IMG/VR virus record: IMGVR_UViG_3300035438_000341
Span: 1 to 64,000 of that record
DNA: 64,000 nt
From: a virus
Reading direction: 5' to 3' (one strand)
The notes beneath the pieces were generated by a model that was given only the letters and a program-made list of their open reading frames with translations, was not told where the DNA came from and ran no database searches. How positions within the stretch are numbered: position 1 is the first letter of the stretch; each line of letters opens with the position of its first letter. Below, piece by piece: positions 15,758 to 50,600 of this stretch. A program made the translations under genes and the position numbers.

Positions 15758-16306
15758 ATGGCAAGTGGTATATATAAAATAACTAATGCTATAAACGGTA
15801 AATTTTATATTGGTAGTACAACTCGTTTATCTGCAAGAAAAGCAGAACATAAATATAGAACTAAAAATAGAAAAGGTAATTCAGCTATAAGAAGTGCTAT
15901 ATTAAAATATGGAGAAGATAATTTCATATTTACAGTTTTAGAAACTTTTGAATTTGGTGGATGGGCTACTAGAGAATACAAAGATGAAATTCTTTCTTCT
16001 AGAGAGCAATATTATATTGATACATTATCTCCTAAATATAATATTAGAAAAATAGATGTTACTAGATGTACAGGAGTATGTTCTGATAAACAAAGAGTTC
16101 ACCTTAAAAAAATAGCACAGTTACCTAGAAATACCTCTTCTTATAAAAAGCCAATTATTCAGATTGATAAAAATGGTAGTTTTATAAAAGAATATAGATG
16201 TGCTCAAGATGCAGAAAGTGAATTAAAATTAAATACTGGTTCTGTATCAAGAGTTCTTTCTAAAGAGTATTCACATACAAAAAATCATTACTTTAAATTT
16301 AAATAA
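15758..16306 (+). mobile_element. Free-standing GIY-YIG homing endonuclease with NUMOD1-like C-terminus
   Basis: GIYKITN...FYIGST..R...H...REQYYID...YN; C-terminal KPIIQ.D..G.FIKEY. Confidence 0.9.
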
Positions 16307-32500: not shown

Positions 32501-34911
32501 CTAGTCTTCTTGATTCTAGCGGTGCATCATTAATATCAGAATATTCAAGATTTATTATTGGAGGAATAGGTGGATGTGATGTACCTGCTCCAGGTCAGAA
32601 AGCAAACTATTGTACTACTCCAGAAAAAGAAAGAGACATAAAAGTTGTATCATATTATGCATCATTAAAAAATATATTTACTAACCAATGGGGACAAATA
32701 TATTCTTATGAAACAATAGATACAGGATTTCAAAGAATGTTCAATGGTATTTCTAATCCTAATGATGTAGCATTTGGAGGAGATACATTCATAAATAAAT
32801 TTGCATACAAAACAAAACTTCCATTCTTTTTAGATAATAGAGTTAATGCTCCTGATGATTCAGATATATTCTATGATGAGATTGGTAATGTAGCCTATCC
32901 AAAATATTGGCATTCTGCTAGATCTATTTTGTACACTTATCAAAATATGACTAATATTATATCAATTAAAGCACATAGTTTTGATTGCTATAGCGATCCT
33001 GCATTAACAGAAAAAGATCCTGTAGGAGCTACTGCTACATTTAGAACATTCTATGATGGTTCATTTTATTTATTTGCATATGGTGTTCCTAGCTTTTATT
33101 GTGAATCAAATTATAATGTAGATGTTCGTCAAGCATTCAATGATAGAGAAGGAAACTTTTGGCCACATGTATCAACAGGTATTCCTGATGATTGGGTACA
33201 AGAAGAGTTCACATCAATTGCTTACGATAACTCATACTATTATAATGTAACATTCTCTAAACAGAACAAGGAAAACTATTTCTCACATTTACCAGCTGAT
33301 TGGACATCTGATTTATGTTTTACATATTATCCATTTAGAACAGTGTATTCAGATACTCAAGTTAACAATGCTGATGTAAGAGTTAACAATTGGTTAGTGT
33401 ACAAACCATTATCATTATATGATTTTCCTCAGAACTATGGTAATCTTATATCACTAGATGGTATTCAGAATAGAGCTATACTAGCTAGATTTGAAAATAA
33501 ATCATTGTTGTATAATAATCTTCTTACAATGAATACCAGTTATCCACAAGCTGCGTATTTAGGTAATCCTAGTATGTTTGCTAACCCTCCTATTGATTTT
33601 GCAGAAACAGATCTTGGATACGTAGGAAGTCAAAACAAAATGTTATTAAAGATTCCTCAAGGACAGATAACAGTTGATGCTAAGAGAGGACAGATATTCT
33701 TAATTCAAGGAACTAAAGTTGAAGAGATGTCTGCATTTGGTTCTGGAATGAATAGATTCTTTACAGACCATTTAGCATTTGAAATACTTAGATACTTTCC
33801 AAAGGTAGATACAGATAATCATTTTAATGGTATAGGTTTACATGGTCTGTATGATAGTAAATTTGAGAGAGTGATAATAACTAAGTTAGATTACATTCCA
33901 TTAAGTTCAGATATCAAATATGACCCTATAACAAAAGATTTCTATATACAAACATTAATAGGTGATGACATTTATGGTAGAACAATTATAAGTTTAAAAG
34001 ATTCAGAATATTTCTGTAATAAGTCTTGGACACTTTCATTTAATGTAAATACTAAAAGCTGGATTTCTTTTCATAGTTATATTCCTAATTGGTATATAGC
34101 AGAAAACAATTTCTTCTATTCTGGTATCAATGGATGTTGTGAGGAGTTTGATTTTGTTGCAGGACAAATAGTTGATACACCAAGTACAACTACTACAACT
34201 ACTATATTTGTACCTACAACCAGTACTACCACTACCGCTGTAACTGCAATTTGTGCAGTTGAAGGAGTTGTAAGAGCAATTGATTGTACATTAGAAGGAG
34301 TAGGAATTATTACTACACCTCCTATTCCTCCACCATGTCAAAGACCTTCTGATTACTCAACAGAATTTACATTTATAAAAGGATATACATTAGGAACGGA
34401 TCCAGAAGTTGTATTTACTGCTAGTCAAATAGAGGCATGTGCTGCTGTCCCTTCTATTGAATATATACTTAGTCCTCTCAATACAGATGGAAGCACACTA
34501 GATACATTTGATGGATATACAAACACTATATTAGATACTTTAGAAGTTGGAAATATAGTTTATTATGGACCTGGTACAGATTGTACACTTGTTCCTGATG
34601 GTTGGTATTTTGCATATTCGCCACTTCCATTAGACAATGTTTATCAAATTTCAGCAGGTGTGGTTGTTACTAAAACAACTTGTAATCCTACCACCACCAC
34701 TACCACAACAGCAATACCTTGTTACTCATTTACAGTGACTAAAACAACAGTGGGTATTGTGACAGTGAATTACATTGATTGTTCAGGGAATCCAGCAACT
34801 AGAGATGTTGGGCTTGCTGAAGGAGGATTTTCAACACAAACATTCTGTGCACGTAGTGTAACTACACCTACACCTACTGGAGTATCATTAACTAATAACG
34901 GACTTTGTTAA
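29533..34911 (+). CDS. Tail stabilisation/muzzle protein with Cys-rich insertion and Thr-stalked C-terminal appendage
   Basis: GLNMD, YWTDG, GYLRDEVYAF.I, FAYWESTEEYP, IRHHKFPD, FGGDTFI, SWISFHSY motifs of crAss-like stabilisation proteins. Confidence 0.8.
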   Translation: MADELDKIKKIINGDQDNIKLEINYGMMGLNMDQTLNQIKDGTLTYALNAALENFDSSSVNYQNEQGNEFCLQFPEGYSLIGTYFINEKNKHIFFLTNPTTGDSEIGYMDNNDCIYHTLVNASCLNFNIDNPIHKVVHKISNCKTEIYWTDGLNSRRYLDIENIPWKLEPGSDLCDPVPDVGNLDCNQLKIQPNFNIPELNITNVYNGGDITAGTYQFAVQYSDASGNPYTSYYSITNPTPIADTQLTTAIFDYKVGKSIEVTVTNLDTSGLYLYYNIAVIKTINNITTPELVGTYSIESDVDVITYTGQNQTLIKLSISDIFEKYPYYDIAQDVTAVQDVLVWDNLTSIDRINYQAIASQIQLQWETYRIPSTENYADELNATNLRGYLRDEVYAFEIVFLLKNGKQTDGFHIPGRTSIPSDLVPVPTTNADFIGEPDPETNTSPYWKIYNTAYVIDNASSDPIGNATSYKYGEFAYWESTEEYPCNTDVWGDLAGQNIRHHKFPDVLVSPIFENPSHVLNNSFVPEMQSDAIFPLGVKVDTLQIESLIDNSTITREQKDNITGFKIVRGNRSTNRSIVAKGMLRNVGTYQREEQTLYYPNYPYNDLNEDPFLNDKTNAYDSLGQSRVWLLECRTTGVYEYTDSVTGKLSSCNQMVAGQNYEFCSLTRPKYLSGNACIGPANYDFVIFDCGQSDQRAFLRASCERTCNNDPLVTLLFGIVTPYCGAGCTLCYKPCGIVVKYLTPGTFPYYENEDGNTWSAQNACTVAPVYPGTLALGQIPPFTESNNSCVIWSRRSPLNDTCGLAKPLPAITSEASRYRQVFNSPDTSFSQPFLGDVLKLESVMYGGGRAHFVPVKGNAKYRLLSKQAQQDALDASFLIAGGANGDVTAIFTAYQAYLTIYVNGITRKNYAQSFNSIASYDYYGDIPNNTTSNGVVGIKQRQLDLKSYLIPGVLNVGDDKNINNYQRESSIYTKTVDNYSPLPFPNKTPSLLDSSGASLISEYSRFIIGGIGGCDVPAPGQKANYCTTPEKERDIKVVSYYASLKNIFTNQWGQIYSYETIDTGFQRMFNGISNPNDVAFGGDTFINKFAYKTKLPFFLDNRVNAPDDSDIFYDEIGNVAYPKYWHSARSILYTYQNMTNIISIKAHSFDCYSDPALTEKDPVGATATFRTFYDGSFYLFAYGVPSFYCESNYNVDVRQAFNDREGNFWPHVSTGIPDDWVQEEFTSIAYDNSYYYNVTFSKQNKENYFSHLPADWTSDLCFTYYPFRTVYSDTQVNNADVRVNNWLVYKPLSLYDFPQNYGNLISLDGIQNRAILARFENKSLLYNNLLTMNTSYPQAAYLGNPSMFANPPIDFAETDLGYVGSQNKMLLKIPQGQITVDAKRGQIFLIQGTKVEEMSAFGSGMNRFFTDHLAFEILRYFPKVDTDNHFNGIGLHGLYDSKFERVIITKLDYIPLSSDIKYDPITKDFYIQTLIGDDIYGRTIISLKDSEYFCNKSWTLSFNVNTKSWISFHSYIPNWYIAENNFFYSGINGCCEEFDFVAGQIVDTPSTTTTTTIFVPTTSTTTTAVTAICAVEGVVRAIDCTLEGVGIITTPPIPPPCQRPSDYSTEFTFIKGYTLGTDPEVVFTASQIEACAAVPSIEYILSPLNTDGSTLDTFDGYTNTILDTLEVGNIVYYGPGTDCTLVPDGWYFAYSPLPLDNVYQISAGVVVTKTTCNPTTTTTTTAIPCYSFTVTKTTVGIVTVNYIDCSGNPATRDVGLAEGGFSTQTFCARSVTTPTPTGVSLTNNGLC

Positions 34912-34920
34912 TAAATTAAT

Positions 34921-35787
34921 ATGTCAAAACTAATAACAATAAGGTTAACACAAGTGTCACCATCTTCTGGACCATTCTCAATCTTTGATCAGCTTGGGAA
35001 TGTGATAGCAGAAGGTGTACCTAGAGAAATACTCATTGGTGGGGTGAACTATACTGTAAATGATAATGTGACATCAGTTAAATTAAAATCTACAGGTAGT
35101 TGTAAGATTGAAAAAACAAATGAATTAAATGATATAACTGAACAAGAATACATTAGTATTAAAGTAAACATAACTATAACAGGATGTATATGGAGACATT
35201 TAACTAATATACAATTATACAATTCTTATTATGGTGCTACATATCCATACATAATTGAATACCCATTTGCTTATAAGAATCAAGATGAAATTTTACAGAA
35301 TGTAAAAGACTATACAAAGGCATATGAATATGTATCTATATCAGATGGTGTGTTTAATGATAACACAAGAATAGAGACAAACAATAAATGGTTTACACAT
35401 GCTATTCTATATAATGGACAACAGAGTTCTGGTGTTCTTAAACTAGTTGCTAAACCTCTTAATGATATGCGTGCATACATGCAATATCCAATATTAAATG
35501 CAGATAGTAAAACAATCACTTACACTAAGAGTGATAACTTCTATCAGTATAATACATTCTGGGCTCTTCAGAAAAGTTCTCAAGTTCCATTGTTTAATAC
35601 AGGTTGTGAAAGCTTATCTATTGATAAGGTGATTAACCAAGCTAATATGGACTATGGATCTAGAAGTTTCAAGAAAGCTACACTAAGAGCAAAAGAACTT
35701 AAAATACGACATATACTTCAAGACAATTGTACAACGCACCTAGTGAGTCAATTCATAATTGCTCCTGCACAAATCTCATACAAGTAA
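34921..35787 (+). CDS. Shared N-module fused to probable C-terminal part of the muzzle protein
   Basis: SGPFSIFD N-module variant, then IWRH...YNSYYG..YPYIIE...ILYN.QQSSG. Confidence 0.6.
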   Translation: MSKLITIRLTQVSPSSGPFSIFDQLGNVIAEGVPREILIGGVNYTVNDNVTSVKLKSTGSCKIEKTNELNDITEQEYISIKVNITITGCIWRHLTNIQLYNSYYGATYPYIIEYPFAYKNQDEILQNVKDYTKAYEYVSISDGVFNDNTRIETNNKWFTHAILYNGQQSSGVLKLVAKPLNDMRAYMQYPILNADSKTITYTKSDNFYQYNTFWALQKSSQVPLFNTGCESLSIDKVINQANMDYGSRSFKKATLRAKELKIRHILQDNCTTHLVSQFIIAPAQISYK

Positions 35788-38009
35788 TGACTAAAGGATG
35801 GTTAGATAATTATAATGATTCAACAACTTCTGCTCCTGAAGGATTTATTGGTGAAGGAATATTCAATGGTCCTAAGTTTGATAATCCTGCATGGGGAGGA
35901 CAGTTTCAAATGGGAGGAAATCTTCCTGGTGCTGTAGGTAATATGTATGCTAGAACAGGATCTCCTAGTAAAGGACCACGTAGAAACCAAACTGATGTAA
36001 CAGATGCTTCTGCACAGAATGGTAAAGAAATGCAATACTATCAACAAGGACTAGATTGGAAACCTAAAACTATTAGTAAGAATGGTGCATGGTTAGATAA
36101 CTATGATGTAGCACAAGAAGGAATAAATCTTCCTTCAGTTAGAGATCTTATTACTGATACCATGAATAGAAAGATTCAAGAACGTAAAGGTAAAGGTAAA
36201 GAAACTAAGGTTACACAAAAAGACAATGCAAAAACTGTTACACCTAAGATAGGTAAAGTAGCTACAGCTAAAGAAAAAGAGCAAAGAGCTATAGAAGAAA
36301 ATAAACAAGCACAAGAAGCTTCAGAATTACAAGCACGCAAAGATTGGGTACAAGGAAGTATGGAAGAAGCTTACAAGTCTCCATTAATGTCTCCAGGATA
36401 TTTTACTCCTGAAGGAATGGCTATTGGTGCTATGCAAGGAGCAGTTAAAATGGGTCCTGATTTATATGAGGGCAATTATAAAGGAGCTGCAGTAGATGCA
36501 CTTATGATGTTACCATTAGCCCCTAATGCTGTTAGAGCAGCTACTCCATTAATACAAAAAGCAGGAAGAGCATTAGGAACAGAAGAAGGTTTATTATCTA
36601 ATGCATATAAATTAAATCCTTGGGCATATAAATCTAATCCTGAAGCATTTTATAGAAAAATTGGTAATGAAGGTTTAGATGATGCATTAGAAAGTGGTTT
36701 AATACGTGCAAAACAACAACCAACACAATCGCCTTCTGGTAAAGGGGTCATTGATATTTCAGAAAACTTTCAACATAAAGATCCTTATTTTGCTAAAGGG
36801 AAACCTTTAGAAAATTATAAAGGTAAATACATGGTTGAGGTTGAAGATATTCCTATGGAAGAAAGAGCTGGATATCCGAACACATCTTATATTCCAAAAA
36901 ATATTTTAGAAACTTCTAATCCTAATTTAAAAATATATGAAAAAGATTGGTTACAAGGATATAAAGAAGTTCCTAAACCTACATCAAATTTTAATTCAGA
37001 AATAAATTGGGGTAAATGGAATAAAGAAATTCCTGATAATCCTCAATTGATGAAAGAGTATAATGCAATAGAACAAACTTCTAAAGCTAATGGTAGTTGG
37101 ATGAAGAATCCTGATGGTTCTTCTTTTCAAGGAACTCCTGAACAATTTGTACAACAGAATAGTGAGAACTTTAAAAAAGCTTTTGGTAATACTAAAGTGA
37201 GAGATGCTAAAGGTAATGTACAAATAACTAATCATAGTACTTGGGATAAATTTGATGAATTTGATTTAAATAAATTTGGTCAAACAGATGATGGGTTTTA
37301 TGGTAAAGGAGCATATTTTCATCCAAATACAAATAGTCCTAAGTTATATGGAGACATTGACATGAATAGTTATGTTAATATAGAAAACCCAATGCCACAT
37401 GAAACTCGTTCTTTTTTTGGAAGAGAGGGTAAAGGAGCATACTGGGATTCAGCAAAGAATGAACAAGTTATAATAGATGACTTAGGTTCTTTGTGGAAAG
37501 GTAAGTATGATGGATACATAACACCTCATGGAGAGTACCCATTAAATGATTTTAATTCTACAGAATATATAACAAATATTCCTAGTAATATTAAATCAGC
37601 AACAGGTAATAATGGAATGTTTGATATGACTAATCCTAATATATATAAAGCTGTAGTTCCAGGAGCAATTGGATTAGGAGCATTGCAACAAAAGAAAGAT
37701 GGAGGAGTGATTAAAGATGATAGAGGGCAATGGGATCATCCAGGAGAGATAACAGAAATAGGAAGTAATGAAATAACAATGGAAGGAGTTCCTTATGATG
37801 TCCTTGGTGTATCAGATACAGGAGATACAAAACTAATGAAACCAGGAAAGAATTATAAGTTCAAGGGTAAGAAGGTTACAGAATATCCTATGGCTAAGAA
37901 TGGTGTGAACCAACAAGATCAAAAAACTTTGCAACAATTAGATCAATTGACTAACTTTACAAATTATAATAAACCACAACCAGGAGGCTGGTTAGAAGCT
38001 TACAAATGA
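35787..38009 (+). CDS. Putative virion cargo polyprotein with ADP-ribosyltransferase-like domain(s)
   Basis: Repeated GWLDNY and x[QK]xG(G) motifs; NHST..FD.F...GFYGKGAYF..Y..IENP..YDG..EY..NIKSATGNNG. Start moved to 35787 (TAATG coupling). Confidence 0.65.
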   Translation: MTKGWLDNYNDSTTSAPEGFIGEGIFNGPKFDNPAWGGQFQMGGNLPGAVGNMYARTGSPSKGPRRNQTDVTDASAQNGKEMQYYQQGLDWKPKTISKNGAWLDNYDVAQEGINLPSVRDLITDTMNRKIQERKGKGKETKVTQKDNAKTVTPKIGKVATAKEKEQRAIEENKQAQEASELQARKDWVQGSMEEAYKSPLMSPGYFTPEGMAIGAMQGAVKMGPDLYEGNYKGAAVDALMMLPLAPNAVRAATPLIQKAGRALGTEEGLLSNAYKLNPWAYKSNPEAFYRKIGNEGLDDALESGLIRAKQQPTQSPSGKGVIDISENFQHKDPYFAKGKPLENYKGKYMVEVEDIPMEERAGYPNTSYIPKNILETSNPNLKIYEKDWLQGYKEVPKPTSNFNSEINWGKWNKEIPDNPQLMKEYNAIEQTSKANGSWMKNPDGSSFQGTPEQFVQQNSENFKKAFGNTKVRDAKGNVQITNHSTWDKFDEFDLNKFGQTDDGFYGKGAYFHPNTNSPKLYGDIDMNSYVNIENPMPHETRSFFGREGKGAYWDSAKNEQVIIDDLGSLWKGKYDGYITPHGEYPLNDFNSTEYITNIPSNIKSATGNNGMFDMTNPNIYKAVVPGAIGLGALQQKKDGGVIKDDRGQWDHPGEITEIGSNEITMEGVPYDVLGVSDTGDTKLMKPGKNYKFKGKKVTEYPMAKNGVNQQDQKTLQQLDQLTNFTNYNKPQPGGWLEAYK

Positions 38010-38629
38010 AAACAGGTATATATACAATAACTAATACTATTACAAACCATATATACGTGGGAGCTGCTTCTGATATTCTAAAAAGATTAAATCAACATTT
38101 ATTAGGATTAAGAAGAAATAATCATGATAACGATTATTTACAAAATTCTTTTAATAAGTACAAGGAAGAAAGTTTTATCTTTGAAACATTAGAAGAATGT
38201 AACAAAAAATACTTGTACTCTCAAGAACATTATTGGTGTAACATGTTAAATACACATAATAAAAGTTTTGGATTTAATTTAAAACCAACACATCCAGATA
38301 ACATATCTTTGTGTAGTGAAGAAACTAGAACAAAAATTAGAATAAAGGCTACTGGTAGAAAATGGTCTGATGAATATAAACAATTGTTTAGAGAAAAACA
38401 ATTAGGAAAAAAACAATCAGAAGAACAAATTACAAAATCTAAAGAAAGCAAATACAAAAAAGTTTATCAATATTCTTTAGAAGGGAAGTTAATTAAAGAG
38501 TGGCCTTCAGCTCAACATATAAAAAAAGAATTAAACATACCAGCAAATAACATATCTAATTGCTGTAATAATAAAAAGTCTTGTAATACTGTAAAAGGTT
38601 TTAAATGGACATATATAAATCAAGGCTAA
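38006..38629 (+). mobile_element. Free-standing GIY-YIG homing endonuclease with NUMOD3/NUMOD1-like repeats
   Basis: GIYTITN...IYVG...KR..QH...LQNSFNKY...E..W...GFN; SEETRTKI repeat; KVYQYSLEGKLIKEW. Confidence 0.9.
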
Positions 38630-38642
38630 ACAAATATAAATC

Positions 38643-41600
38643 ATGAAAGCACAAATTTTAAAAATTGCAGGAGTTAAATCTGAAAAGGAATTCTATAAGA
38701 AATATCCTTCGGAGGAAGCCTTTATGAAAAAACATGGTAAAGAGTTTAAGAAAGCTCAGACTGGTAATAATATAGCTACTAGTAATGCAGGATCATTCAA
38801 CATGTATAATCCTTATGGCGATGCTTTCCAAAGTGTTGATATGGAAGGAATGCAATCTTCTTTTGTTAAACCTATTATAGAAGATACTAGTGATGAAGAA
38901 ATAGCACCAGTTGAAGTTACTCCTAACTTTGGTAAAAAACAACAAAAAGCTAGCGATGCATATGACACACAAGAGTTAATAGGTATGACAGGAGATACAT
39001 CTAATCCTTTGGGAACAGATAAACTATCTTCTTTTGCAAAAGGAATAGATCCTATGAATGCTGTAATGGGAGCTTTCACTGGAATAAAAGGTGCGTTTGA
39101 TGCACATAAAGAAAATAAGAAACTTACAAAAAAAATGGAAACTTGGGCTAAAGTTTCTGATGTACAGAAGAGAGCTGGTATATCAAATGCATTTGCTGAG
39201 AAACCAAAGAACCAATGGTTCAGACCAGATGATCCTAGATTCATACATAGTGCTAATGAACTATCTAATACACAAGGAAGAGGAACAGATGTTATTACAC
39301 AAAATGGTGGAGTGTTCCAAGGTGGTGGTGAAATACAAAATACATTTGCCCCTGGTGCAATATACGATGATCTTGGATATGAACCATTTGATGAAAGTAA
39401 TAATGATGATGCTGCTTATCTTGAGAATTATCAAGGTGGTGGTAAGTTTGGAAATTTCTTTAATCAACTTAATACAGACCTAGGAGGAGGCCAAGGTTTT
39501 ATGGGTAACCTAGGAAAGGAAAGTCCCTTTAATTCTATGCTTGCTGGAAACAGTACATTAGCTAATGCTACTGGTAAGCTAGGTAGTTTATTTGGACCAG
39601 GTGTAGGACTAGTTACAACAATGTTTGGAAGAATGTTGGATAAAGAACCAGGTAAACAAAAGCATGCACAAAATACAATGAATTCAAATAATGCATTCTT
39701 AGCTAGATTAAACACTGCAGGAGATATAACAGGCGGTTTACAAAATATGGGAGTTGGTCAAAATGGAGAAGCTCTTCAACCGTATGAAGATGGTGGATGG
39801 GTCTCTAACGATTGGACTCCACAAGTTATAGCTTCATTTGGTGGTCTTGATGAACAAGAAGTATATGACTATGCACATGAAGGAATGGATACACTAAGAG
39901 CTGGTGGACATATGAGAGATTACACACCTATTAGTAATCGAGGTATGGAAACTTATGCTATGGGTGGACAACTTAAAACTCATTGGGGTGGAGAAGCTGA
40001 AGTAATTTCTCGTAATCCATATATGCCAGGTTCTGGTGAGATGGTTAAACTTAATGGTGCATCACATGACAATGATGGTATTGGTATTAGCTATGGTGGT
40101 CAACAAGGTGGTCCTCAACAAACAGCTAAATATGGTGCTGATACAGATGCTAGTATAGAAGCAGAAGGAAGAGAAACTATAATGGAAATGCAAGATGGTG
40201 GAGAAGTAGATCCTCAAACAGGAGAAGCTCAAACATCAGCAGTTGTATTAGGTAATATAGCACCTAGTGCAGATATAGTTAAAGCTACTGGTGATCAAGT
40301 GTTAATAGATTTATTCAATAAAAATCCTAAGAAAACATTTAAACGTATAGGTGAGGTGATTGCTAAAGATGAGAATAAAGCAGCCTCTTATATGGAGATA
40401 GCTTCTGCTAAAGCAAATAATGCAGATGATACACAATGGGGAGCATTAGAAAATAAAACTGCAGATATAATAAAAAAAGCTGGAGATGCTAAATTTAAAC
40501 TAGCTGCACAACAAAGAATCAAATCAGCAAACTTACAGAGTGCAGTTAATGATACTAAAAAAGATATATCATATATGAAAGGAAAAAATATAAGTGCAGA
40601 AGATTTAGGTAAAGGTAAGATATCACTTGACTATGATCCTATCACTAAAGATGCTGAATTAGAAAGTCCATATGCTAAGCATGGAGCTTATTTAAGAAAA
40701 GCTCAGAACAGTGAGGTCATTAGTCCAGCTGAACAAAAACCATCTATTACAGAAGATCAATACAATGAACTTGTTAAATTATATGAACAAGGTAAGAAAG
40801 ATAAAAAGAGTGCTTCTATAAAAGAGTTCCAACATAAGTATCATCAATTATTTCCTAATGAAGCTATTACAGCAATTCAAAAAACTACTAAAGAAAGAGG
40901 AGTTAATGCTAAAGGGAAGAAGATGGGTCTTACTAAAGAAGAAATTCTTTCTGGAAAAAATACTGGTAGGATATTAGAAAGTAATGAAGATGAATACTTT
41001 GGTCCTAGAACAGAGCAATACATGGCTAAGATTAGTTCTGAATTCAACAAGAAACCTGCAGCTGCAACAGAAGAATTAAAGTTAACCCCTCTTGGTGCAA
41101 AGACAACTCCTACCACTGATAAAAAAGAAATAGATGTAGTTCCATATAAAAGAAATAAGTTTATGGACTATGCTAACATGCTTAGTCAGTTCTTACCAAG
41201 TGCTAAACTTCCAGGAATTGATCCACGTCAGTTTGCAGGAGAATATATGGCTATGTCTCAGAATCAATATGAACCTGTACCATCTCAACATATAAGAATG
41301 CAATTAGATCCTATGACTCGTGTAAGCTATCAAGATATTAGAAATCAAAGCACTGCAGACTTTAGAGATGCATTGAATCAAGGTGCGTTTAATCCAGCTG
41401 CGGCAGCAGGTGTATTTGGTAAAAAAGCTCTAGCAGATCAATCTTCTTACGCTGAGGAGTTCAGAGCTAACCAAGGTCTTGAACAACAGATATATGGCGG
41501 TAATAGAGCTAAGGTTAATCAAGAGATGGCTGCAAACTTACAATTAAATGCTGATCAAATGAACAAACAAAGTCTTGCATTAAGTAAAACAAAAGAGATA

Positions 41601-41990
41601 AATCAAAAAGCCATTGCTTCTATAGCTGATAAGTATTTGCAACATGATGCTCGTGACTTAGAATATAAGGTTAAGAGTAATATGTTCCCTACATTTGCAT
41701 ATAATCAATCAGGTGGAATACGTACACAAGGTCCAGGATTTCAACCAAACATTCCACAAGTTTATGGAGGTAAATCAAACATAAAACAAGTTCCTGTATA
41801 TGATACTGATGGTAAAACTATTCTAAGATATCAAATGCAAGAAGGAGATGGAACTAATATACCTTCTACTGCTACACCTCCTCTTGTTGCACTAACAAAA
41901 AATGGAGGATCTGTTGGTAAAAATAATAGATCATCAGTTGTTAAAAATGCTAAGAACGGTTCTATAGTTAAACTACACAAAAATTTCTAA
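38643..41990 (+). CDS. Virion internal (cargo/ejection) protein
   Basis: 1115 aa, Gly/Gln-rich with many x[QKE]xGG motifs; GASH..GI..EAEG.E segment; immediately upstream of the giant genes. Confidence 0.65.
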   Translation: MKAQILKIAGVKSEKEFYKKYPSEEAFMKKHGKEFKKAQTGNNIATSNAGSFNMYNPYGDAFQSVDMEGMQSSFVKPIIEDTSDEEIAPVEVTPNFGKKQQKASDAYDTQELIGMTGDTSNPLGTDKLSSFAKGIDPMNAVMGAFTGIKGAFDAHKENKKLTKKMETWAKVSDVQKRAGISNAFAEKPKNQWFRPDDPRFIHSANELSNTQGRGTDVITQNGGVFQGGGEIQNTFAPGAIYDDLGYEPFDESNNDDAAYLENYQGGGKFGNFFNQLNTDLGGGQGFMGNLGKESPFNSMLAGNSTLANATGKLGSLFGPGVGLVTTMFGRMLDKEPGKQKHAQNTMNSNNAFLARLNTAGDITGGLQNMGVGQNGEALQPYEDGGWVSNDWTPQVIASFGGLDEQEVYDYAHEGMDTLRAGGHMRDYTPISNRGMETYAMGGQLKTHWGGEAEVISRNPYMPGSGEMVKLNGASHDNDGIGISYGGQQGGPQQTAKYGADTDASIEAEGRETIMEMQDGGEVDPQTGEAQTSAVVLGNIAPSADIVKATGDQVLIDLFNKNPKKTFKRIGEVIAKDENKAASYMEIASAKANNADDTQWGALENKTADIIKKAGDAKFKLAAQQRIKSANLQSAVNDTKKDISYMKGKNISAEDLGKGKISLDYDPITKDAELESPYAKHGAYLRKAQNSEVISPAEQKPSITEDQYNELVKLYEQGKKDKKSASIKEFQHKYHQLFPNEAITAIQKTTKERGVNAKGKKMGLTKEEILSGKNTGRILESNEDEYFGPRTEQYMAKISSEFNKKPAAATEELKLTPLGAKTTPTTDKKEIDVVPYKRNKFMDYANMLSQFLPSAKLPGIDPRQFAGEYMAMSQNQYEPVPSQHIRMQLDPMTRVSYQDIRNQSTADFRDALNQGAFNPAAAAGVFGKKALADQSSYAEEFRANQGLEQQIYGGNRAKVNQEMAANLQLNADQMNKQSLALSKTKEINQKAIASIADKYLQHDARDLEYKVKSNMFPTFAYNQSGGIRTQGPGFQPNIPQVYGGKSNIKQVPVYDTDGKTILRYQMQEGDGTNIPSTATPPLVALTKNGGSVGKNNRSSVVKNAKNGSIVKLHKNF

Positions 41991-41998
41991 CCAATTTA

Positions 41999-42062
41999 AT
42001 TATAAAGAATTACCAGAATTGATTATTAGTTTTGGTAGTTATAATAATTCATATTATATTTG
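41999..42062 (+). promoter_or_regulatory. Promoter candidate with ATTATAAAGAATWACC box
   Basis: Box 41999-42014; 16 nt; TTTG 42031-42034; 20 nt; TATATTTG 42055-42062 (full Bacteroidota consensus). Confidence 0.65.
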
Positions 42063-42069
42063 CTAAATT

Positions 42070-44685
42070 ATGGCTTCATACACAGACATCACCCCCACTT
42101 TCAATCCCTACGTTAAGCAATTGCCTGTTGAGGCAATGGCTGAAGTGGGTATGTACAAACAACAAAAGTATGATGAGGGTATACAGAAAATACAAACTAA
42201 CATTGATAACATTGCTGGACTTGATGTTCTTAGAGATGTAGATAAAGCATATCTACAATCTAAACTCAATCAACTAGGTAATAACCTCAGTACAGTTGCA
42301 GCTGGAGATTTCTCTAATTTCCAATTGGTTAATTCTGTTAATGGAATGACCAATCAAATATCCAAAGACCCTAATGTACTAAATGCAATAGCATCTTCTA
42401 AGACTTATAGAAAAGGATTAGAAGAGATGGCTGCTGCTAATAAAGATGGTAAAGGATCTGCTTCTCACGATTGGTTATTCAAAACTGATGCTAACGATTG
42501 GTTAACTAGTGGAGATTTAAATAAATCATTTACTGGTGGGTATAAGCAATACAGTAATTATAAAAAGAATGGAATAGAAGTTATCAAAGCATTAGTTAAA
42601 AATGAAACTACTAAAGATGTAGCAATTGAGTATGACAAGAATGGTAATGTGATTGTATTAGATGCAATGACACGTACAAAGATTGCAGGAATAACACCTG
42701 AAAGAATACAAGCAGCTTTGATGGTGGGTCTTAGTCCTAATGATTTTCAATCAATGCAAATTGATGGTAGATATAATTATTCAAATTCTACACCTGAACA
42801 ATTTGTTTCTGATATCAATAAATCATATAAGACAGATTATGATAAGATAAAGATGCAAAGAGACATGACAGTTAATGCCATGGATACAACTAGTTCAGCA
42901 TCTACTAAAATGGAATTACAAAAACAAGTTGACTCATTTGACAAAACATTAAAAAATTTATCAGATGAATATGGAAATGTTACTAAAACATTTGCTCAAG
43001 GTGATGTAGAATCCGCTAAGGCAAGACTTCACACTACTAAATGGATTAGTAATTTTTCTAATACATTTGCTAGCCAAGATGTATCTCAAACATATGAGTC
43101 TAGTCCATTTCAACAAGTTAAGCAATATAAGGAAACTAAAGAAATTGAATATAGAAAATGGTTAGCTACATATAATCAAACACAACAGTTTCATCAGGAT
43201 GATATTTATTTTAAAAAGAGAGATGATGCTAGAGCTGAACGTAAAGAAGTAAGAGAAGAAAAGTTAGCAGGTCTTCAAAGTGGATATGGAGGAGTTCCTT
43301 TCTCTGTTGATCAAAAAGAACTTCCTACGGTTACTCTTGATAAAATTAATGATAAAATAAAAAATGATAATAAAGCTATAGCCAATAGTGAAAATGAAAT
43401 AATGGAAGCCTTTGATAAAAAGGGAGATACATTATGGTTAGATCAACAACGAGTGGCATGGCAAAGCGGTAAGTATGTAGATCCTTTATTGAGATCACAT
43501 TTTAATACAACAGAACCTTTGAAAAGAGATGCATTTGCTAATATTGGAATGATTACAGATATAAATAATAAACTAGATAGTAAATTTGGAAAAATAGAAG
43601 ATTATATCCCTGCTGGTTCTAAATCTGTTACAGTTAGTTTTCCTGGTGGAGCATACAAATATTCTCCTAAAGATTTTGTTGAATTTAATAATAAAGTGAA
43701 CAACTATATAATAAGGGGTAGTGGTGATGGTAGATCTACAGGAGGTGGTGGTGCCCCTGGAACACAAAGTTCAGGAGCAATGTATGATAATGCAAGAGCT
43801 AAAAAAGAACTTTCTGATAAAGAATATTATTTATTTCTAGCAAAAACTCAACCCTATTCAAATAATGCTGGATTTAAAACACTTAATCAATATTCAAATG
43901 AATATTTTAAAAATGTAAACTTTCCATATCAAAAAGTTTTAGTAGAAAGAAACAAAGAAACTGCTCAAATGGTTAAAGATAGAGTGGTAGCAATGCAGGG
44001 TAATGAGTATGGTATTCCTTTAGATAATGAAGCACAGAAAACTAGCTTTGGAAATGCTCTTATGAGTTTTGCTAATCTTGCTGATAAACAAGATGGAGGA
44101 TTACCTAACTCTCCAGGTCTTGATACAAAAGCATTAAGAGCTATTGCAGGAGATCTTCAAAATGCAACAATACAAATTGTTGAAGGAACTGCATATGCTC
44201 CTGGAATGTATCAAGTTACAGCAGCAGGAAAAGATGGTACACCTCAAACATTTAGAGTTCCTACAGAAGCATACAGATCTGTATTTGGTAATAGATTTGA
44301 AGCTGATCCACAGATAGCAGCAATTAGACCTTTGCAATCACAACAAATAAGAGCAGGTGGTGGTACAACAGCAATTGATGGTGGAAAAACAAATATAAGT
44401 AATTCTTATATGGGAAAAGCTACAGATTTTGTAAATGTAAGACATTATGGAGTTTCAGGAAACTTAGTTACAAGTCAAGATGGTCTAAACTCAATTAGAC
44501 TTAATATAACAGATCCTAAGACTAACAAAGTGTTAATTCAAGATCTTGCATATCCAGATTTTAATATACCAGCTAATCAAGTAAACAATGCAGTGCTAGG
44601 ATTGACTGATGAAAGAATATTTGAGTTATTAAATAATAGAAAGCCTTCAGCTTCAGAATTAAAAACATTAAGACAAAAACCATAA
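42070..44685 (+). CDS. Ejection/cargo protein (first of three large genes)
   Basis: 871 aa, helical N-terminus (PYV.QLP...KQQKYD); precedes the virion RNAP. Confidence 0.65.
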   Translation: MASYTDITPTFNPYVKQLPVEAMAEVGMYKQQKYDEGIQKIQTNIDNIAGLDVLRDVDKAYLQSKLNQLGNNLSTVAAGDFSNFQLVNSVNGMTNQISKDPNVLNAIASSKTYRKGLEEMAAANKDGKGSASHDWLFKTDANDWLTSGDLNKSFTGGYKQYSNYKKNGIEVIKALVKNETTKDVAIEYDKNGNVIVLDAMTRTKIAGITPERIQAALMVGLSPNDFQSMQIDGRYNYSNSTPEQFVSDINKSYKTDYDKIKMQRDMTVNAMDTTSSASTKMELQKQVDSFDKTLKNLSDEYGNVTKTFAQGDVESAKARLHTTKWISNFSNTFASQDVSQTYESSPFQQVKQYKETKEIEYRKWLATYNQTQQFHQDDIYFKKRDDARAERKEVREEKLAGLQSGYGGVPFSVDQKELPTVTLDKINDKIKNDNKAIANSENEIMEAFDKKGDTLWLDQQRVAWQSGKYVDPLLRSHFNTTEPLKRDAFANIGMITDINNKLDSKFGKIEDYIPAGSKSVTVSFPGGAYKYSPKDFVEFNNKVNNYIIRGSGDGRSTGGGGAPGTQSSGAMYDNARAKKELSDKEYYLFLAKTQPYSNNAGFKTLNQYSNEYFKNVNFPYQKVLVERNKETAQMVKDRVVAMQGNEYGIPLDNEAQKTSFGNALMSFANLADKQDGGLPNSPGLDTKALRAIAGDLQNATIQIVEGTAYAPGMYQVTAAGKDGTPQTFRVPTEAYRSVFGNRFEADPQIAAIRPLQSQQIRAGGGTTAIDGGKTNISNSYMGKATDFVNVRHYGVSGNLVTSQDGLNSIRLNITDPKTNKVLIQDLAYPDFNIPANQVNNAVLGLTDERIFELLNNRKPSASELKTLRQKP

Positions 44686-44687
44686 CA

Positions 44688-47600
44688 ATGGCAGAAAATA
44701 ATCTAGAATCAATTGATAAAGCACAAAATGGTGCAGCAGCAGTAAATCCTGTTCCTACACAATTAAATGTAGAAACACCAATGTTAGATAGACTTGATCT
44801 TGAAAATCAATTTGGTGGATATACAGCTCCTGGTATTCCAGAACCTTTGCCTACATATGCAAGTCCAGATAATGTTTATCCTGATGCAGTACCCTTAACA
44901 AGTAATCTTGGTGGAGGTGGTGATGATGGTTCTTTGGAATCACTTTATTCTTCATTGCGTACACCTACTTCTACTAAACCAGGAGGAAGTATAATGAGAA
45001 CTCTTTCTGAAGTGTCATCTAACAGATATGATAACTTTGTTCCTGGAGATTATAATAACGAAGATGCTTATGCTCAAAATCAATCTTGGACATCTAAAAT
45101 GATCAATGGTGTAGGTAAAGGACTTTTACTTACAGGTACAACATTTCTACAAGGTACTGTAGGTATGGTTAATGGATTGGTTCAATGGGGAAAGGATGGG
45201 AGATTTGCTTCTTTTTATGATAATGATTTTAATAGAAACTTAGATGAAGTAATAAGAAAAGCTGAAGATGTTGCTCCTAATTTTTATACTGATGTAGAAA
45301 AAAATGCTAGTTGGTATTCTCCTGATTATTTTTTAACAGGAAACTTTTTATGGGATGGTGTTGTTAAGAACATGGGATTTGCTGCTGGAGCTTATTTAAC
45401 TGGTGGAGTTTATTCTGCTGGATTAAAAGGACTCGCTGCACTTCCAGGTGCATCTAGACTATTATCTATGGGTAAAGTTGCTGAAGCAGTTGCTAAGTCA
45501 GAAGAGATGTTATTAAAACTTGATAAAGGAACAGAGGCTTATGGAAAAATAAAAGCATTGTCTGATTCCTATTTAAGAACATATAATATTTTAGATAAAG
45601 GACATAGAGCTGTTGTTGCAGGATTGTCTACTAGTGGGGAAGCTGGATTTGAAGCATTTCAAAATCTTAATACTTTTAGAAATCAAAAAATACAAGAGTT
45701 TAAAGATAAAAATAATGGACTAGAACCAAAAGGTGCTGATCTTGATAACATTAATAGATCTGCTGATAGTGTAGGTAATGCTTCTTTCTTAGGGAATGTT
45801 GCTTTACTTAGTGCTACTAACTATATTCAATTTCCTAAAATACTAGGAAGTTCTTATAAAGCAGAAAAGGGAATTATAAATAATGTTACTAGAGGGATTG
45901 GAGATATAACTACAGATGCTGCAGGTAAGTTTGTTGCAAAAACTCCTAAGAATAAAGTATTAAACACTATAAATAAAATAAGACCTTATACTTTTTCTGC
46001 CTCAGAAGGGTTTGAAGAAGGTGCTCAGTTTTCTATAGGTGTTGGTGTAAATGATTATTATAATAAAAAATATAATAATGAACCTACTAGTTGGTTAGAT
46101 GCTTTATCAACAGGAATTACTGAAGGATTTTTATCAGATGAAGGAGCTAAAAATGTTTTAATAGGAGGATTGTCTGGTGCAATAATGATGGGAAAAAGTA
46201 AATTCCAAGAAGGAAGAGAAACATCAAAAAATACAGCAGAAGCAATAACACAATTCAATAACTATCAATTATCTGATTTTACTAAAGAAACAAAAGACTC
46301 TGTAAATAGAGGAACTGTTCTTCAAGAAGAAAGAGAGCAGTTATTAAAAGAAGGAAACATAACAGAAAGTAAAGATAAAGAAACTGATTACATTATTAAT
46401 TATCTCACTCCTAGAATTAAATTTGGAAGATTTGATTTAGTAAAAGCTGAGATAGATGATTACAGAACTCTTGCTAGTACTAATGATGGGTTTAATGAAT
46501 TAGTAAAAGAAGAAAAAGCTCTTCCTACAGATACTAGAGAAGCATTCTTGGATAGACTTAATAAATTTGAACAGACAGCAAATAATGTAAAATCTTTATA
46601 TCAAACTTTAAACTTACGTTATAGTGGCTTAGCAAATGCAGATGGAACTCCTATGTACCCTACTTCTGTAATAGATAAAATGTTATATGCCACTACTAAA
46701 ATTTCAGACTATGAACAAAGAATTCCAGAATTAACAAGTCAGTTAATAGGAAGTGTAGATAATATAGATGAAATTTTACAAGATGTTTCTGAGGGTAAAT
46801 TAGATACGTTTAATACAGCTGTTGCTAATCTTCAAGCAAGTAAACTTATTAATAAAGAAGAACTTATTGAAGCATTAGATGATGCTGCTTTTATGACTGC
46901 TAAAAGAGATGTATTATTAAAGCAATATGATGGTTTAAAAAATAACCCAGAAAAGTATGTAGCAGTTGAACCAACTATAACTGATAGTGAAGGTAATGTA
47001 TTAGATGAAAATGGAAACATTGTTCCTAAAGAAACTGTTATAGTTAAAGTTAAAGATGGTAAAACAGGACAAGTAGTAGATAAGAAAATTGAAATAGGTA
47101 CTGAGTATGTACTTGGTAAAATAGTTAAATACGATAAAGATGGTAATGAAGTTATTCAAGCTCCAACATTAAGTATATTAGCTGATAATGGTGATGGTAC
47201 ATTTAAAATTAAAGATAAGAATGGAATAAGAAATGTTTCTGCGGAAACATTAGAAGGATATCAATTATCTAAACTTTCTGACATTACAAAAGATAAGAAG
47301 AAGAACTATGCATACATTAATAGAAATAACACTTTCTCAAATAAATTAATAAAAGATGCTAATGGTAATCCTGTTATAGGAAGATTAGAATACTCTGCTA
47401 ATAAAGACAGACTTACATTTGTATACAAGAATGAGAAAGGACAAGTTATAAGAAGTGAGGTTTGGAACAATATGTTCAAAGCTCAAGGTACATACAAAGA
47501 GGCTATTATTACACAAGTGGGAGAAGTGACTGCTGAAGCTGCACAAGCTACAGAGGAATTTGTAAATGCTGTAACCACTATATCACAAAAACTGCAAACA

Positions 47601-50600
47601 CGTAACAATATTATACTAGACTTGTATGATAAAAGTGTTAAGCGTCTAGATGAGATAACTAAAAAATTAAACACTAGTAAAGAAAGAACAGCTAAAGCTC
47701 TTGAAGCATTAGAAGATCAACTTGCAAAAGAGAGCCTTACTAAGAAAGGAACTCCTAGAAAGAATCAAACTCCTGCAATGAAGAAGATAATCAATGAACT
47801 ATCTTCTATACAAGCTACATTAAATAAAGAGAATGAACAACTATTAAGTGAGAAAGAAGAATTAGAATCTAACATACCTTTCTTTAAAGACTTCTTAGAT
47901 AATCTTGAGTCTCTTCCTGAATCAGGTAGAGAGATGATTAAGTTATTAAAAGATGATATTAACACTCTTGAGGACTTAATTGATATAACTAATCAAGCTA
48001 TTAAAGATAATAGTAGTCTATTGAAACAAATAGAAGATGCATTTCTAAAAGCTGTTTCTATATTTAATGATTATATCAAAAGACTTCAACAAGAAAATCC
48101 AGGTGTACCATTATTTATAGATGACTTACAAGCTAATCTAGAAAGAGCATTAGGAGATGAAGGTGCACAATACTATATTAATAATAAACAGGGCATCACT
48201 ACTCAAGTATTAGAACTAGAATCTGATATAAATGATTTCTCAGCTGAGTTAAAAATACCTGCATTAAATAAAAAAGCAGAAGAGCTCGTTAAAGATATAG
48301 CAGATTTAAAAGAAGGCTTAGATAAACTTATCAATGAACAAATTGCTAAGAGAGAAATATTAAATGCGTTTGAACAATTTGCAGAAGATGTAAAGAAACA
48401 AGAAGAAGAAGCTGCACAAATGCAACGTAATGTTACATTAGGACAAGAGCTTCTTGGTACATTAACAGGAAGTGTACAAAACTTCTTTGGTACAAAACCA
48501 TATGAGCAAGAAGCTAAAAAAGATAAACTTACTGTTGTAGGAGCTACTAAACCATTCACAGGAGATACTGTTGAAAGACCTCTTCCAGGATATGCTGCAA
48601 GAGTTAATCACTTTGGGACAAGAGTTTCTGATATGGATAATGTAGATGATCTTAGAGGTGTTATTGTAACAGCTAATACAGAAGATCAAATACTTTCTGG
48701 ATTAACAGAAGCGTTTCTTTCTGAAGATATAACAGATGCAAAAAGAAAAGAAGAAGTCAGAAAAGAAGTTATATTCTTAGTTGTAACAGAGAATGGACAA
48801 CTTGTAGATAAGGATGGGAAACTTATTCCTGGAAAATCTGCAGATGAAACACAAGAAGCTTACAACAAAAGACTTTATGACAATGCTATATTCCAAGTGT
48901 TTCCTTCTGCTTCATTAGCTTATACAAAAGGAGATGTTGAAACAGGATCAATGTTTAGAGACACTGTTCCTGAATATGAAAGAGAAAGTCTTAAAGAGCA
49001 ATATAAAGCATGGAGAGATGGACAATTATCAAATACAACATTAGATAAGAAAGGACAAAAGTTTAAAACATCTTTTGGTAATCTAGAGTTTGTTAAATAT
49101 AAAAATGCAGATGGCACAACATCTGTAGATACTTCTGCAAGAACTTCTGCACAAGATGCTGGATTATTAGCTAAAGGTATACTTAATAGAGATGCTGTCA
49201 TCACTGTTGCTACAACTAATGATGATAAGTCTGAAGGAAGTGTTTCTTTCAAGAGTCCTAAAGGTAGAGTGTTCTTACGTATACCAGGGCAAGGACTTGT
49301 TAGACTTTATAATAAAAAGTTTAATAAAACAGAATCAGAAACAATATTTGATGCTATGTTAAACTTAGCTAAAAATGCTTCTGCGAATGGTTCATTATTC
49401 GGTAATGAAAAAGAAGAAGTTAATAAGAATATTTTAAACTGGTTAAAGAGCGTTGTATATTGGGGAATTGCAAAAGATAAAGAAGGAAACAGAAAACCTG
49501 CTGGATATAATAACATTTGGTTTGAAGATGTTATGGAAGATGGTAAACAAGTTAAGAAGTTGTTTATGTCTGGTCTTCAAAAAGAATCTCAAAGATATTT
49601 TGACTTTACACCACAAGGACTTATAAATAGTAAACAAGATATTCTTGGATTGCTAGGACAAATGTATGCTAATACAGATGCTAAAAAAGTAAATATAGAT
49701 ACATACAATGCTCCCTACGATGAGATACTAAGTTTTGATAACCTAGGACTCCCTGTTACAAGAACATGGCCTAATTATCAAACATATTTATTGTCTGCAA
49801 ACATTGTAGATAAAGATGGAAATGTTATAGGTAAAAGAACTGGAAAAGAAATTCCTCTTACAACACAAGTAAGACCTCTTACATCTGCAGAAGATACAAA
49901 TAGAAAGGGTGTGTATTTCACATTGAATAGTTCAGTAGAATACACTGTACCTGCAGCTCCTATAGTTAAACCTGCAGTGGTGGTTACACCAGCACCAGTT
50001 GCTGCTACACCAACTGCTCAAGCTCCTGTAGCTCCCACAGCTTCACCAGTAGTTCCACAACAACAACCTACACCTCCTGGACAATATAATTTAAATGGAG
50101 AAGCAGAAAATAGTAGAATGTTTGGTAATGGTGTAGGAGAAATAAGATTTACATTCAATTCAGCAAAAGCAATTGAGTATATAAAATCTCTTTCTATAGA
50201 TATATTTTCTATTCAAGGATTACTTCCTGCTGAAATATCTACAGCATTTTTTAAGAATGACATCATGAATATAAATTCAGATGATGTAAAAATGAAAATT
50301 GGTCAGATAAAGGAAAACTTAAGAGATACTAACCCTGATGCAACTGATGAAGAACTAACAGGTAAAGCTCTTAATATTGCTGTTAGTATGATATGGAAAG
50401 ATGTTGCTCCACAAGTTGTAGGAGAAATGACTCCTGTTCAACCAGCAATAGCTGATGAAGCTCCAACATCTTTAGTAACAAGAATAAATGACACTATAAC
50501 AAAAATATTTGAGTATGAATCATTATTTGATTTTAGTACAGATCAACCAGGTAAAGTTGTTAAAGGAGAATTTATTCCTGATAATTTAGGATCTCAAATA

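Follow-up and report, generated by a model that had tools for sequence, protein, structure and literature searches.

Short conserved peptides at the module borders of putative cargo proteins from an uncultured crAss-related phage

Two large neighbouring genes, starting at positions 35787 and 38643 of a 64,000-nucleotide stretch of viral DNA (IMG/VR record IMGVR_UViG_3300035438_000341, positions 1 to 64,000, hereafter the window), raise the question of what purpose is served by the short glycine-containing peptides that recur in their products: cleavage, binding, the joining of protein modules, or none at all. The window is the first part of a 96,046-bp viral record that is estimated to be 83% complete, and the two genes, judged from their sequence and surroundings, encode cargo (ejection) proteins of an uncultured crAss-related phage. 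A sequence-only reading of the window had proposed that a loose motif, x-[QKE]-x-G(G), punctuates these proteins as a maturation-cleavage or packaging signal, allowing interchangeable effector domains to be loaded and released as separate proteins. The analysis described here leads, with modest confidence, to another view, in which a set of narrower peptides serves as inter-module junctions or linkers of a mosaic cargo protein of the polyvalent type.

Every peptide listed in that reading is present in the translations of the 35787 protein, the 38643 protein and a giant protein encoded further downstream, and its three G(A/G)WL(D/E)xY boxes in the 35787 protein are confirmed at residues 4-9, 100-106 and 733-739. 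The claimed enrichment of the loose motif is not found, as x[QKE]xG occurs 17 times in the 35787 protein against 16.6 expected (p 0.49) and 25 times in the 38643 protein against 24.3 expected (p 0.48) in 2000 composition-preserving shuffles, with observed-to-expected ratios of 1.13 across 65 distinct homologues of the former and 0.88 across 43 of the latter. The raw density exceeds that of the portal, capsid and terminase proteins because both proteins consist of 10% Gly and 22% Gln, Lys or Glu. Comparison with a composition-matched background, chosen beforehand as the test that could refute the motif, thus goes against its loose form, which arises from a composition rich in Gly and Gln/Lys. 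In the AlphaFold2 model of the 35787 protein, TEIG and MKPG lie inside a module predicted with a local distance difference test score (pLDDT) above 90 and VKMG lies inside a helix; being within confidently folded parts, all three are best regarded as chance hits.

Three narrower peptides are non-random: A-[QK]-x-G; x-x-G-G, usually with Gln, Lys or Glu two residues ahead of the Gly pair; and G-G-W-L-[DN]-x-Y, here termed the GWL box. The tight set, defined post hoc and counted as the union of A[QK]xG, [QKE]xGG and the GWL box, is found 8 times in the 35787 protein against 2.5 expected (p 0.004), 12 times in the 38643 protein against 4.1 (p 0.002) and 6 times in a basic protein encoded at 80910, outside the window, against 1.4 (p 0.005), with all other large proteins at expectation. 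Family-wide, A[QK]xG exceeds shuffle expectation 3.5-fold for 35787 and 2.4-fold for 38643, and [QKE]xGG 2.7-fold and 1.85-fold, most other families lying near 1, in counts that shared ancestry inflates. The tight motifs are conserved in 50 distinct members of the 35787 family. The parts of the 35787 protein between which they fall are listed below.

35787..38009, plus strand: the whole 740-residue protein, a mosaic putative cargo protein whose two ends are constant and whose centre is swapped, as drawn from the BLAST architecture of homologues
35796..35813, plus strand: N-terminal G-W-L-D-N-Y box, residues 4-9
35904..35918, plus strand: F-Q-M-G-G junction, residues 40-44, with a breakpoint cluster at residues 39-49 and pLDDT of about 30
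36012..36023, plus strand: A-Q-N-G junction, residues 76-79, with breakpoints at residues 76-82 and at least 6 different modules following it in homologues
36075..36104, plus strand: S-K-N-G junction and internal G-A-W-L-D-N-Y box, residues 97-106, the left edge of the insert, with a breakpoint at residue 107
36087..37706, plus strand: swapped-in centre of about 540 residues, residues 101-640, a helical region and an ADP-ribosyltransferase domain
37203..37622, plus strand: ART-PolyVal domain, residues 473-612 (Pfam PF18760, E 1.7e-9, 39 bits against a cut-off of 31.2)
37692..37706, plus strand: K-K-D-G-G junction, residues 636-640, the right edge of the insert, with the strongest breakpoint cluster at residues 633-641
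37707..37892, plus strand: module E, a constant small beta module, residues 641-702 (AlphaFold2 pLDDT 88-96)
37893..37904, plus strand: A-K-N-G junction, residues 703-706, the end of module E, with a breakpoint at residue 706
37983..38003, plus strand: C-terminal G-G-W-L-E-A-Y box, residues 733-739, with one residue between it and the stop codon

The whole-chain AlphaFold2 models are poor, with a mean pLDDT of 53 for the 35787 protein and 56 for the 38643 protein, and are informative locally. Residues 1-116 of the 35787 protein, which hold F-Q-M-G-G, A-Q-N-G, S-K-N-G and two GWL boxes, are modelled at a pLDDT of about 30-49, and the confidently modelled module E is bounded by K-K-D-G-G, directly before it, and by A-K-N-G at its end. 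The earlier statement that the motifs fall between domains therefore applies to the tight forms, most of which stand in low-confidence, probably unstructured segments next to folded modules, and not to several loose ones, which lie inside folds. Only one Pfam domain is recognised in the 35787 protein, the rest of the insert being unannotated, and its Pfam search gave no match to a peptidase family. Module E matched no known fold or family (Foldseek against the PDB; no named relative in the ESM Atlas), and Foldseek searches of the PDB with both protein models returned nothing below E 0.1.

Comparison of homologues reveals how these parts are assembled. A scan of IMG/VR gave 80 loci with relatives of 35787, and 49 further distinct homologues span 229-2473 residues, in which the N-terminal stretch of about 100 residues and the C-terminal stretch of about 105 are kept, typically at 80-95% identity in closer relatives, and the centre is entirely different. 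The swapped-in centre is missing from the minimal homologues in loci L029 and L066. The L029 protein, of 239 residues, equals the window protein minus residues 101-640: its S-R-D-G runs straight into module E, where the window protein has S-K-N-G, a GWL box and some 530 residues, ART-PolyVal among them, ahead of K-K-D-G-G and module E. This gap, from S-K-N-G to K-K-D-G-G, confirms the earlier claim that the motifs bracket an enzyme-like insert, and the homologue comparison likewise upholds the proposal that variable domains swap between motifs. Among the 50 distinct members, the slot contains ART-PolyVal in 13, glucosaminidase, SLT, PG_binding_1 and DUF6973 in 2 each, and LysM in 1, and most members have no Pfam-recognised domain there. 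Module E itself varies in position, being C-terminal, N-terminal or internal in other large proteins. When the C-terminal 111 residues were used as a query, 931 database proteins were matched; the 120 matches listed are 416-1250 residues long and 78-100% identical.

The GWL box marks the ends of this family. In the 80 loci, 57 open reading frames (ORFs) end with it, all belonging to the 35787 family, and 23 family ORFs begin with it, most others carrying it after an added N-terminal zinc ribbon; no other ORF among the 732 examined has the box at a terminus. The zinc ribbon, with four Cys residues in about 37 residues, precedes the first GWL box in most homologues (e.g. L029:9881-10000) and is lacking in the window protein and about a third of its relatives. 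Compared with neighbouring genes, the constant ends mostly show as much synonymous change or somewhat less, so that no special homogenisation at the DNA level is claimed.

The positions at which homologues part company coincide with the tight peptides. In an all-against-all comparison, the best-supported breakpoints of the window protein are at residues 39-46, 107, 149, 633-641 and 706, and all except that at residue 149 fall on a tight motif. Over the family as a whole, 126 merged breakpoints are found no more than a few residues from [QKE]xGG, against 54.7 expected. The same module end is followed by many different continuations at A-S-A-Q-N-G, P-M-A-K-N-G, V-P-Q-A-Q-x-G-G, Q-F-Q-M-G-G and T-I-S-[KR]-[DN]-G, and module E almost always comes directly after x-x-G-G. 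At the DNA level, similarity to seven related loci begins or breaks off no more than 1-3 codons from the motif ends, at the following places.

35904-35923: break at F-Q-M-G-G
36078-36086: break at S-K-N-G, where similarity to L021, L029 and L041 stops
36116-36117: break at A-Q-E-G
37696-37707: break at K-K-D-G-G, where similarity resumes in six loci
38764-38773: break at the last codon of K-K-A-Q-T-G in 38643, where similarity to seven loci ends

The last of these coincides with a genome-scale mosaic boundary, the switch occurring exactly after codon 41 of 38643 (38765 onward). In comparison with L021, L025, L027 and L029, genes upstream of 38765 are 64-98% identical in protein, and beyond it the amino-acid identity falls from 85-98% to about 40% in the body of 38643 and to 31-39% in the next gene, 42070.

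In the 38643 protein, the tight peptides occur in the following parts.

38643..38765, plus strand: 41-residue helical leader ending in K-K-A-Q-T-G, conserved in the family, after which similarity collapses
39276..39338, plus strand: island with Q-N-G-G and G-G-x-E-I-Q, residues 212-232 (DNA island 39281-39400; pLDDT about 27-36)
39789..39968, plus strand: island with D-G-G-W, R-A-G-G-H and Y-A-M-G-G, residues 383-442 (DNA island 39786-39957; pLDDT below 50)
39969..40262, plus strand: beta domain, residues 443-540, starting right after Y-A-M-G-G and containing M-Q-D-G-G
41898..41960, plus strand: C-terminal pair of K-N-G-G and A-K-N-G, residues 1086-1106

Across 105 homologues, the conserved sites are K-K-A-Q-x-G (residues 36-41), Q-N-G (220-222), Y-Q-x-G-G (263-267), [DE]-G-G-[YW] (383-386), Y-A-M-G-G (438-442), K-N-G-G (1086-1089) and A-K-N-[SG] (1103-1106), and R-A-G-G-H (419-423) is invariant or near-invariant. 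In the C-terminal pair, Lys, Asn and Gly of K-N-G-G are kept in 89, 91 and 96 of the 105 sequences, and Lys and Asn of A-K-N-G in 79 and 104. AlphaFold2 models the leader (residues 1-40) at a pLDDT of 77-88 and the next 110 residues or so with low confidence, near 30; strands are predicted in the beta domain, with block values mostly of 68-86 and lower ones at residues 481-500 and 519-530. With the exception of M-Q-D-G-G, the other G-G sites of this protein lie in low-confidence stretches. The protein has no family match in Pfam or PHROG and no match in the PDB.

The same peptides are repeated in two small, very basic proteins outside the window (Genome G000 C1; L082:18333-18749 and 18910-19746), encoded at 80333-80752 (139 residues) and 80910-81749 (279 residues), in the forms I-K-K-A-Q-x-G, K-N-G-G and I-K-K-A-[AK]-x-G, the copy in the 80333 protein standing at residues 5-10. 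Neither has a Pfam or PHROG match, and they could be DNA-associated internal proteins that share the cargo-protein motif.

The assignment of this region to an ejection locus, made from the window alone, is borne out: the two genes lie in a cargo block of the crAss-like type. On the plus strand, the block is preceded by the terminase, portal and major capsid protein genes and a run of structural genes, with PHROG matches; the terminase is closest to those of a Leptolyngbya phage, the Cellulophaga phages phi4:1 and phi17:2, and crAss-like gut phages; and the giant protein shares three colinear stretches with crAss001 gp47 (phmmer E 2.3e-32, in a search against five sequences). The identity of the locus follows from these structural matches, the crAss-like terminase and the gp47 colinearity. 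The genes of the block and its flanks, apart from 35787 itself, are as follows.

29533..34911, plus strand: 1792-residue virion structural protein by its PHROG match (E 1.7e-109), encoded immediately ahead of the cargo block
34921..35787, plus strand: 288-residue conserved protein without an assigned function, carrying no tight motif
38006..38629, plus strand: GIY-YIG/NUMOD1 homing endonuclease (Pfam and PHROG), between the two cargo genes
38643..41990, plus strand: 1115-residue putative cargo protein, a positional analogue of crAss001 C1/gp45, with 527 homologues
42070..44685, plus strand: 871-residue third protein of the cargo locus, with 1 tight motif observed against 1.6 expected
44688..58115, plus strand: 4475-residue giant protein, its first 2200 residues or so colinear with crAss001 gp47

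From its position and its structural-protein PHROG match, the 1792-residue protein would be the counterpart of the crAss muzzle. The cargo genes thus lie between a putative muzzle gene and a gp47-type, RNA-polymerase-associated gene, and the 35787 protein in particular sits among virion genes, with structural PHROGs upstream and the gp47-like cargo gene downstream. Synteny with the crAss001 C1/C2 block justifies the name ejection locus, although the searches found no direct similarity to gp45 or gp46. The 34921 protein has no Pfam or PHROG match and no tight motif across 42 homologues. In crAss001, gp47 is one of the RNA-polymerase-associated cargo proteins (PMC10172136). The giant protein here has no alignment to gp47 beyond about 2200 residues, and the label RNA polymerase given to it earlier is that of a candidate only; Pfam and PHROG searches found no match except a sub-threshold DnaJ hit (E 0.05, residues 1987-2029), and a sequence search of the PDB was empty. 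Its K-A-Q-N-G, which had been pointed out as part of the motif system, is present at residues 11-15 (44718-44732) and is absent from all 20 of 20 distinct homologue N-termini. Searches of 50,697 phage records with the locus, the 38643 protein and module E (megablast and tblastn) found no relatives, the ART domain alone matching F116 and a Tunturiibacter phage, and PDB sequence searches with the 35787 and 38643 proteins returned nothing.

L025, L027, L029 and L041 lack the homing endonuclease gene at 38006-38629, and in them the cargo genes on either side abut. A second GIY-YIG-type homing endonuclease gene lies inside the structural gene block at window positions 15758-16306 (PHROG, E 5e-18). 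The window is 97.5% identical to L021 over 37696-38765 and about 78% identical upstream, an identity tract that looks like the trace of homing co-conversion.

Direct comparison with crAss001 gp45 and gp46 by BLAST gave nothing below E 1. A weak hhalign match links residues 302-341 of the 38643 protein with the predicted transmembrane region of gp45 (E 8e-4, probability 24%, 39 columns); this segment (window 39546-39665) is Gly-rich and hydrophobic and is followed by basic residues. The gp45 protein (L081 6988-9516) has 21 G-G dipeptides against 13.1 expected (p 0.02), many of them in aromatic-x-x-G-G, and one G-G-W-L at the start of its portal-bound domain. The idea that module E is homologous to the beta domain of the 38643 protein or to gp45 was dropped, as hhalign showed no relation.

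In the favoured explanation, the 35787 and 38643 proteins would each consist of autonomous modules with unstructured segments linking them. The 35787 family would combine a constant unstructured N-terminal part with a constant C-terminal beta module and GWL tail, the centre being exchanged among phages, and the constant ends may serve incorporation into the virion and ejection. Exchange at the junction peptides could be favoured in two ways, as flexible joints would keep new combinations functional and the shared coding sequence would offer short homology for recombination. What is observed is that the motifs are conserved, stand in low-confidence positions and coincide with breakpoints at both the protein and the DNA level; cleavage is not needed to explain these data. 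Several points weigh against this explanation. The breakpoint statistics come from related sequences, with motif definitions that were refined after the data had been seen. Tolerance of linkers explains where the breakpoints lie, but not why unrelated modules end in a shared short peptide, which suggests a function of its own for the peptide, for instance as the target of a protease or of a binding partner. The near-invariant G-G motifs of the 38643 protein, conserved on both sides as in R-A-G-G-H, suggest binding or folded elements and not linkers, and low pLDDT may under-call structure because the alignments are shallow and mosaic. Moreover, the codons of the GWL box vary synonymously (GGT/GGA/GGC, TTA/TTG/CTA, TAT/TAC), which means that the peptide, and not the DNA alone, is under selection.

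Two of the alternatives, cleavage and docking, assign such a function to the peptide and are not exclusive of a junction role. The tight peptides might be sites at which a maturation protease of phage or host origin trims leaders, such as the 41 residues of the 38643 protein, and cuts cargo into modules before packaging, in the head or after injection, a possibility that is regarded as unlikely. It would account for the same short peptide ending many unrelated modules, for conservation on the N-terminal side that collapses right after the Gly (e.g. after K-K-A-Q-x-G), for the placement of the motifs in low-confidence, probably exposed segments, and for near-N-terminal copies in three proteins (residues 36-41 of 38643, 5-10 of 80333 and 11-15 of the giant protein). 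It also has precedents, as T4 capsid-targeting sequences and ejection proteins of the phiKZ/SPN3US type are cut at short motifs by a prohead protease, and polyvalent proteins are predicted to be processed (PMC5512222). However, the search of the rest of the genome for a maturation protease found none. Pfam analysis of 51 other ORFs showed no such enzyme among the 25 families listed of the 43 matched, the sole peptidase being the cell-wall Peptidase_M15_4; searches of the incomplete record for S78 (HK97-type) and S77 (T4-type) proteases and for the clan CE families PF00770 (C5, adenain) and PF02902 (C48, Ulp) were negative; and HExxH is absent from the ten largest proteins. In the 57 ORFs the GWL box comes after G-G at the very C-terminus, and in the 23 it stands at the very N-terminus, places where a cut would free only 3-7 residues; a box at these ends does not fit well with a role in cleavage alone. 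The site in the giant protein is not conserved, M-Q-D-G-G lies inside a modelled beta domain, and neither the crAss001 virion study (PMC10172136) nor the Crassvirales review (PMC10136315) mentions a protease or proteolysis, gp45 (C1) being described in both as one partly unfolded chain that spans the distance between tail barrel and portal and has short segments docked on the rings, the muzzle and the portal. The specific proposal that A-[QK]-x-G and x-x-G-G are sites at which an unrecognised phage or host protease trims leaders and cuts crAss-type cargo into effectors is accordingly rated a little lower still, as rather improbable; if true, it would mean a cargo-polyprotein maturation system in Crassvirales-related phages, in which these two papers report no protease. 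Autocleavage at Asn-Gly or Asp-Gly and cross-linking of Gln and Lys at A-[QK]-x-G were also considered and set aside, the middle residue being too variable.

The same conserved peptides could instead be docking motifs that fold on the 12-fold portal, the tail-barrel rings, the muzzle or the capsid interior, holding partly unfolded cargo and setting the order of ejection, with the GWL box, the 41-residue leader and the R-A-G-G-H/Y-A-M-G-G island as the main candidates. High conservation combined with low AlphaFold2 confidence is what is expected of segments that fold on a partner, the GWL box occurs at both termini, the constant ends persist whatever the centre, and crAss001 gp45, likewise rich in aromatic-x-x-G-G, has residues 214-245 and a 14-residue piece bound to the tail rings and muzzle, and residues 425-552 bound to the portal (PMC10172136). 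Set against this, BLAST found no homology to the resolved gp45 segments, the one hhalign match points to the transmembrane region, and docking by itself does not explain the exact location at swap points, so that it too is held to be doubtful. Finally, the peptides might be nothing more than chance products of a low-complexity composition rich in Gly, Gln and Lys. The loose motif, which sits exactly at shuffle expectation with several of its listed instances inside folded modules, fits this account, which holds for that motif only; the tight forms, enriched, conserved over hundreds of homologues and placed on mosaic boundaries of the DNA, contradict it, and as an explanation of the whole it is very improbable. 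A role as junctions between modules remains the preferred explanation of the tight peptides.

Crass-like phages inject several megadaltons of cargo, and how this cargo is recruited, ordered and diversified is largely unknown. The 35787 family offers a clear design of constant ends and a swappable centre, in which the swap points are sharply defined and natural variants number in the hundreds. Should the ends be signals for recruitment and ejection, they would specify what a protein requires for loading into such a virion; should the junction peptides be cut or docked, they would mark an undescribed step in crAss-type virion assembly. The variable centres, including ADP-ribosyltransferase, cell-wall hydrolases and many unknown domains, would amount to a catalogue of first-strike functions delivered by these phages.

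A literature search found no paper on the tight peptides, the GWL box or the family with constant ends, and several known systems can be compared with them. The Gly-Gly-X processing of adenovirus and African swine fever virus provides a superficial resemblance to x-x-G-G in internal virion proteins, but here no clan CE protease is found in the record and the P4 preference is not consistently matched. T4 internal proteins and the ejection proteins of phiKZ and SPN3US share with the present proteins the short motifs in packaged and injected proteins and the N-terminal leaders; they differ in having an identified prohead protease, cleavage proven by mass spectrometry and motifs that end in Glu, whereas here no protease is found. 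In polymorphic toxins, the pre-toxin junction is marked by motifs such as VENN in CdiA and PxxxxDPxGL in Rhs. As in those toxins, a short conserved peptide stands at the border between constant and variable parts and cassettes are exchanged there (Zhang et al. 2012, PMC3482391), a likeness that is one of functional analogy only; here each protein has several junctions, the variable part is internal rather than C-terminal, the carrier is a phage virion protein, and no immunity gene is implicated, although no search aimed at one was made.

The closest positional relatives are crAss001 C1 (gp45) and C2 (gp46) (Bayfield et al. 2023, PMC10172136), which occupy the same place between a large tail protein and a gp47-like gene and are likewise large, Gly-rich and mostly unmodelled, with short conserved segments that could dock on the portal or tail. 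They differ in that no significant sequence similarity is found and that swapped enzyme cassettes, the GWL box and A-[QK]-N/T-G are not seen in gp45 and gp46. Polyvalent proteins (Iyer et al. 2017, PMC5512222) are also multidomain phage proteins encoded with virion genes, with ART-PolyVal as a hallmark; their members differ in effector and cell-wall domains, their delivery with the DNA is predicted and their mosaicism is extensive. Processing by embedded peptidases is predicted for them (PMC5512222), but no zincin-like or other embedded peptidase, common though not universal there, is found in the present protein, and the constant end modules, GWL box and junction peptides of the 35787 family are not found in that account. 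One catalytic domain is recognised in the 35787 protein, and different domains occupy the same slot across its family.

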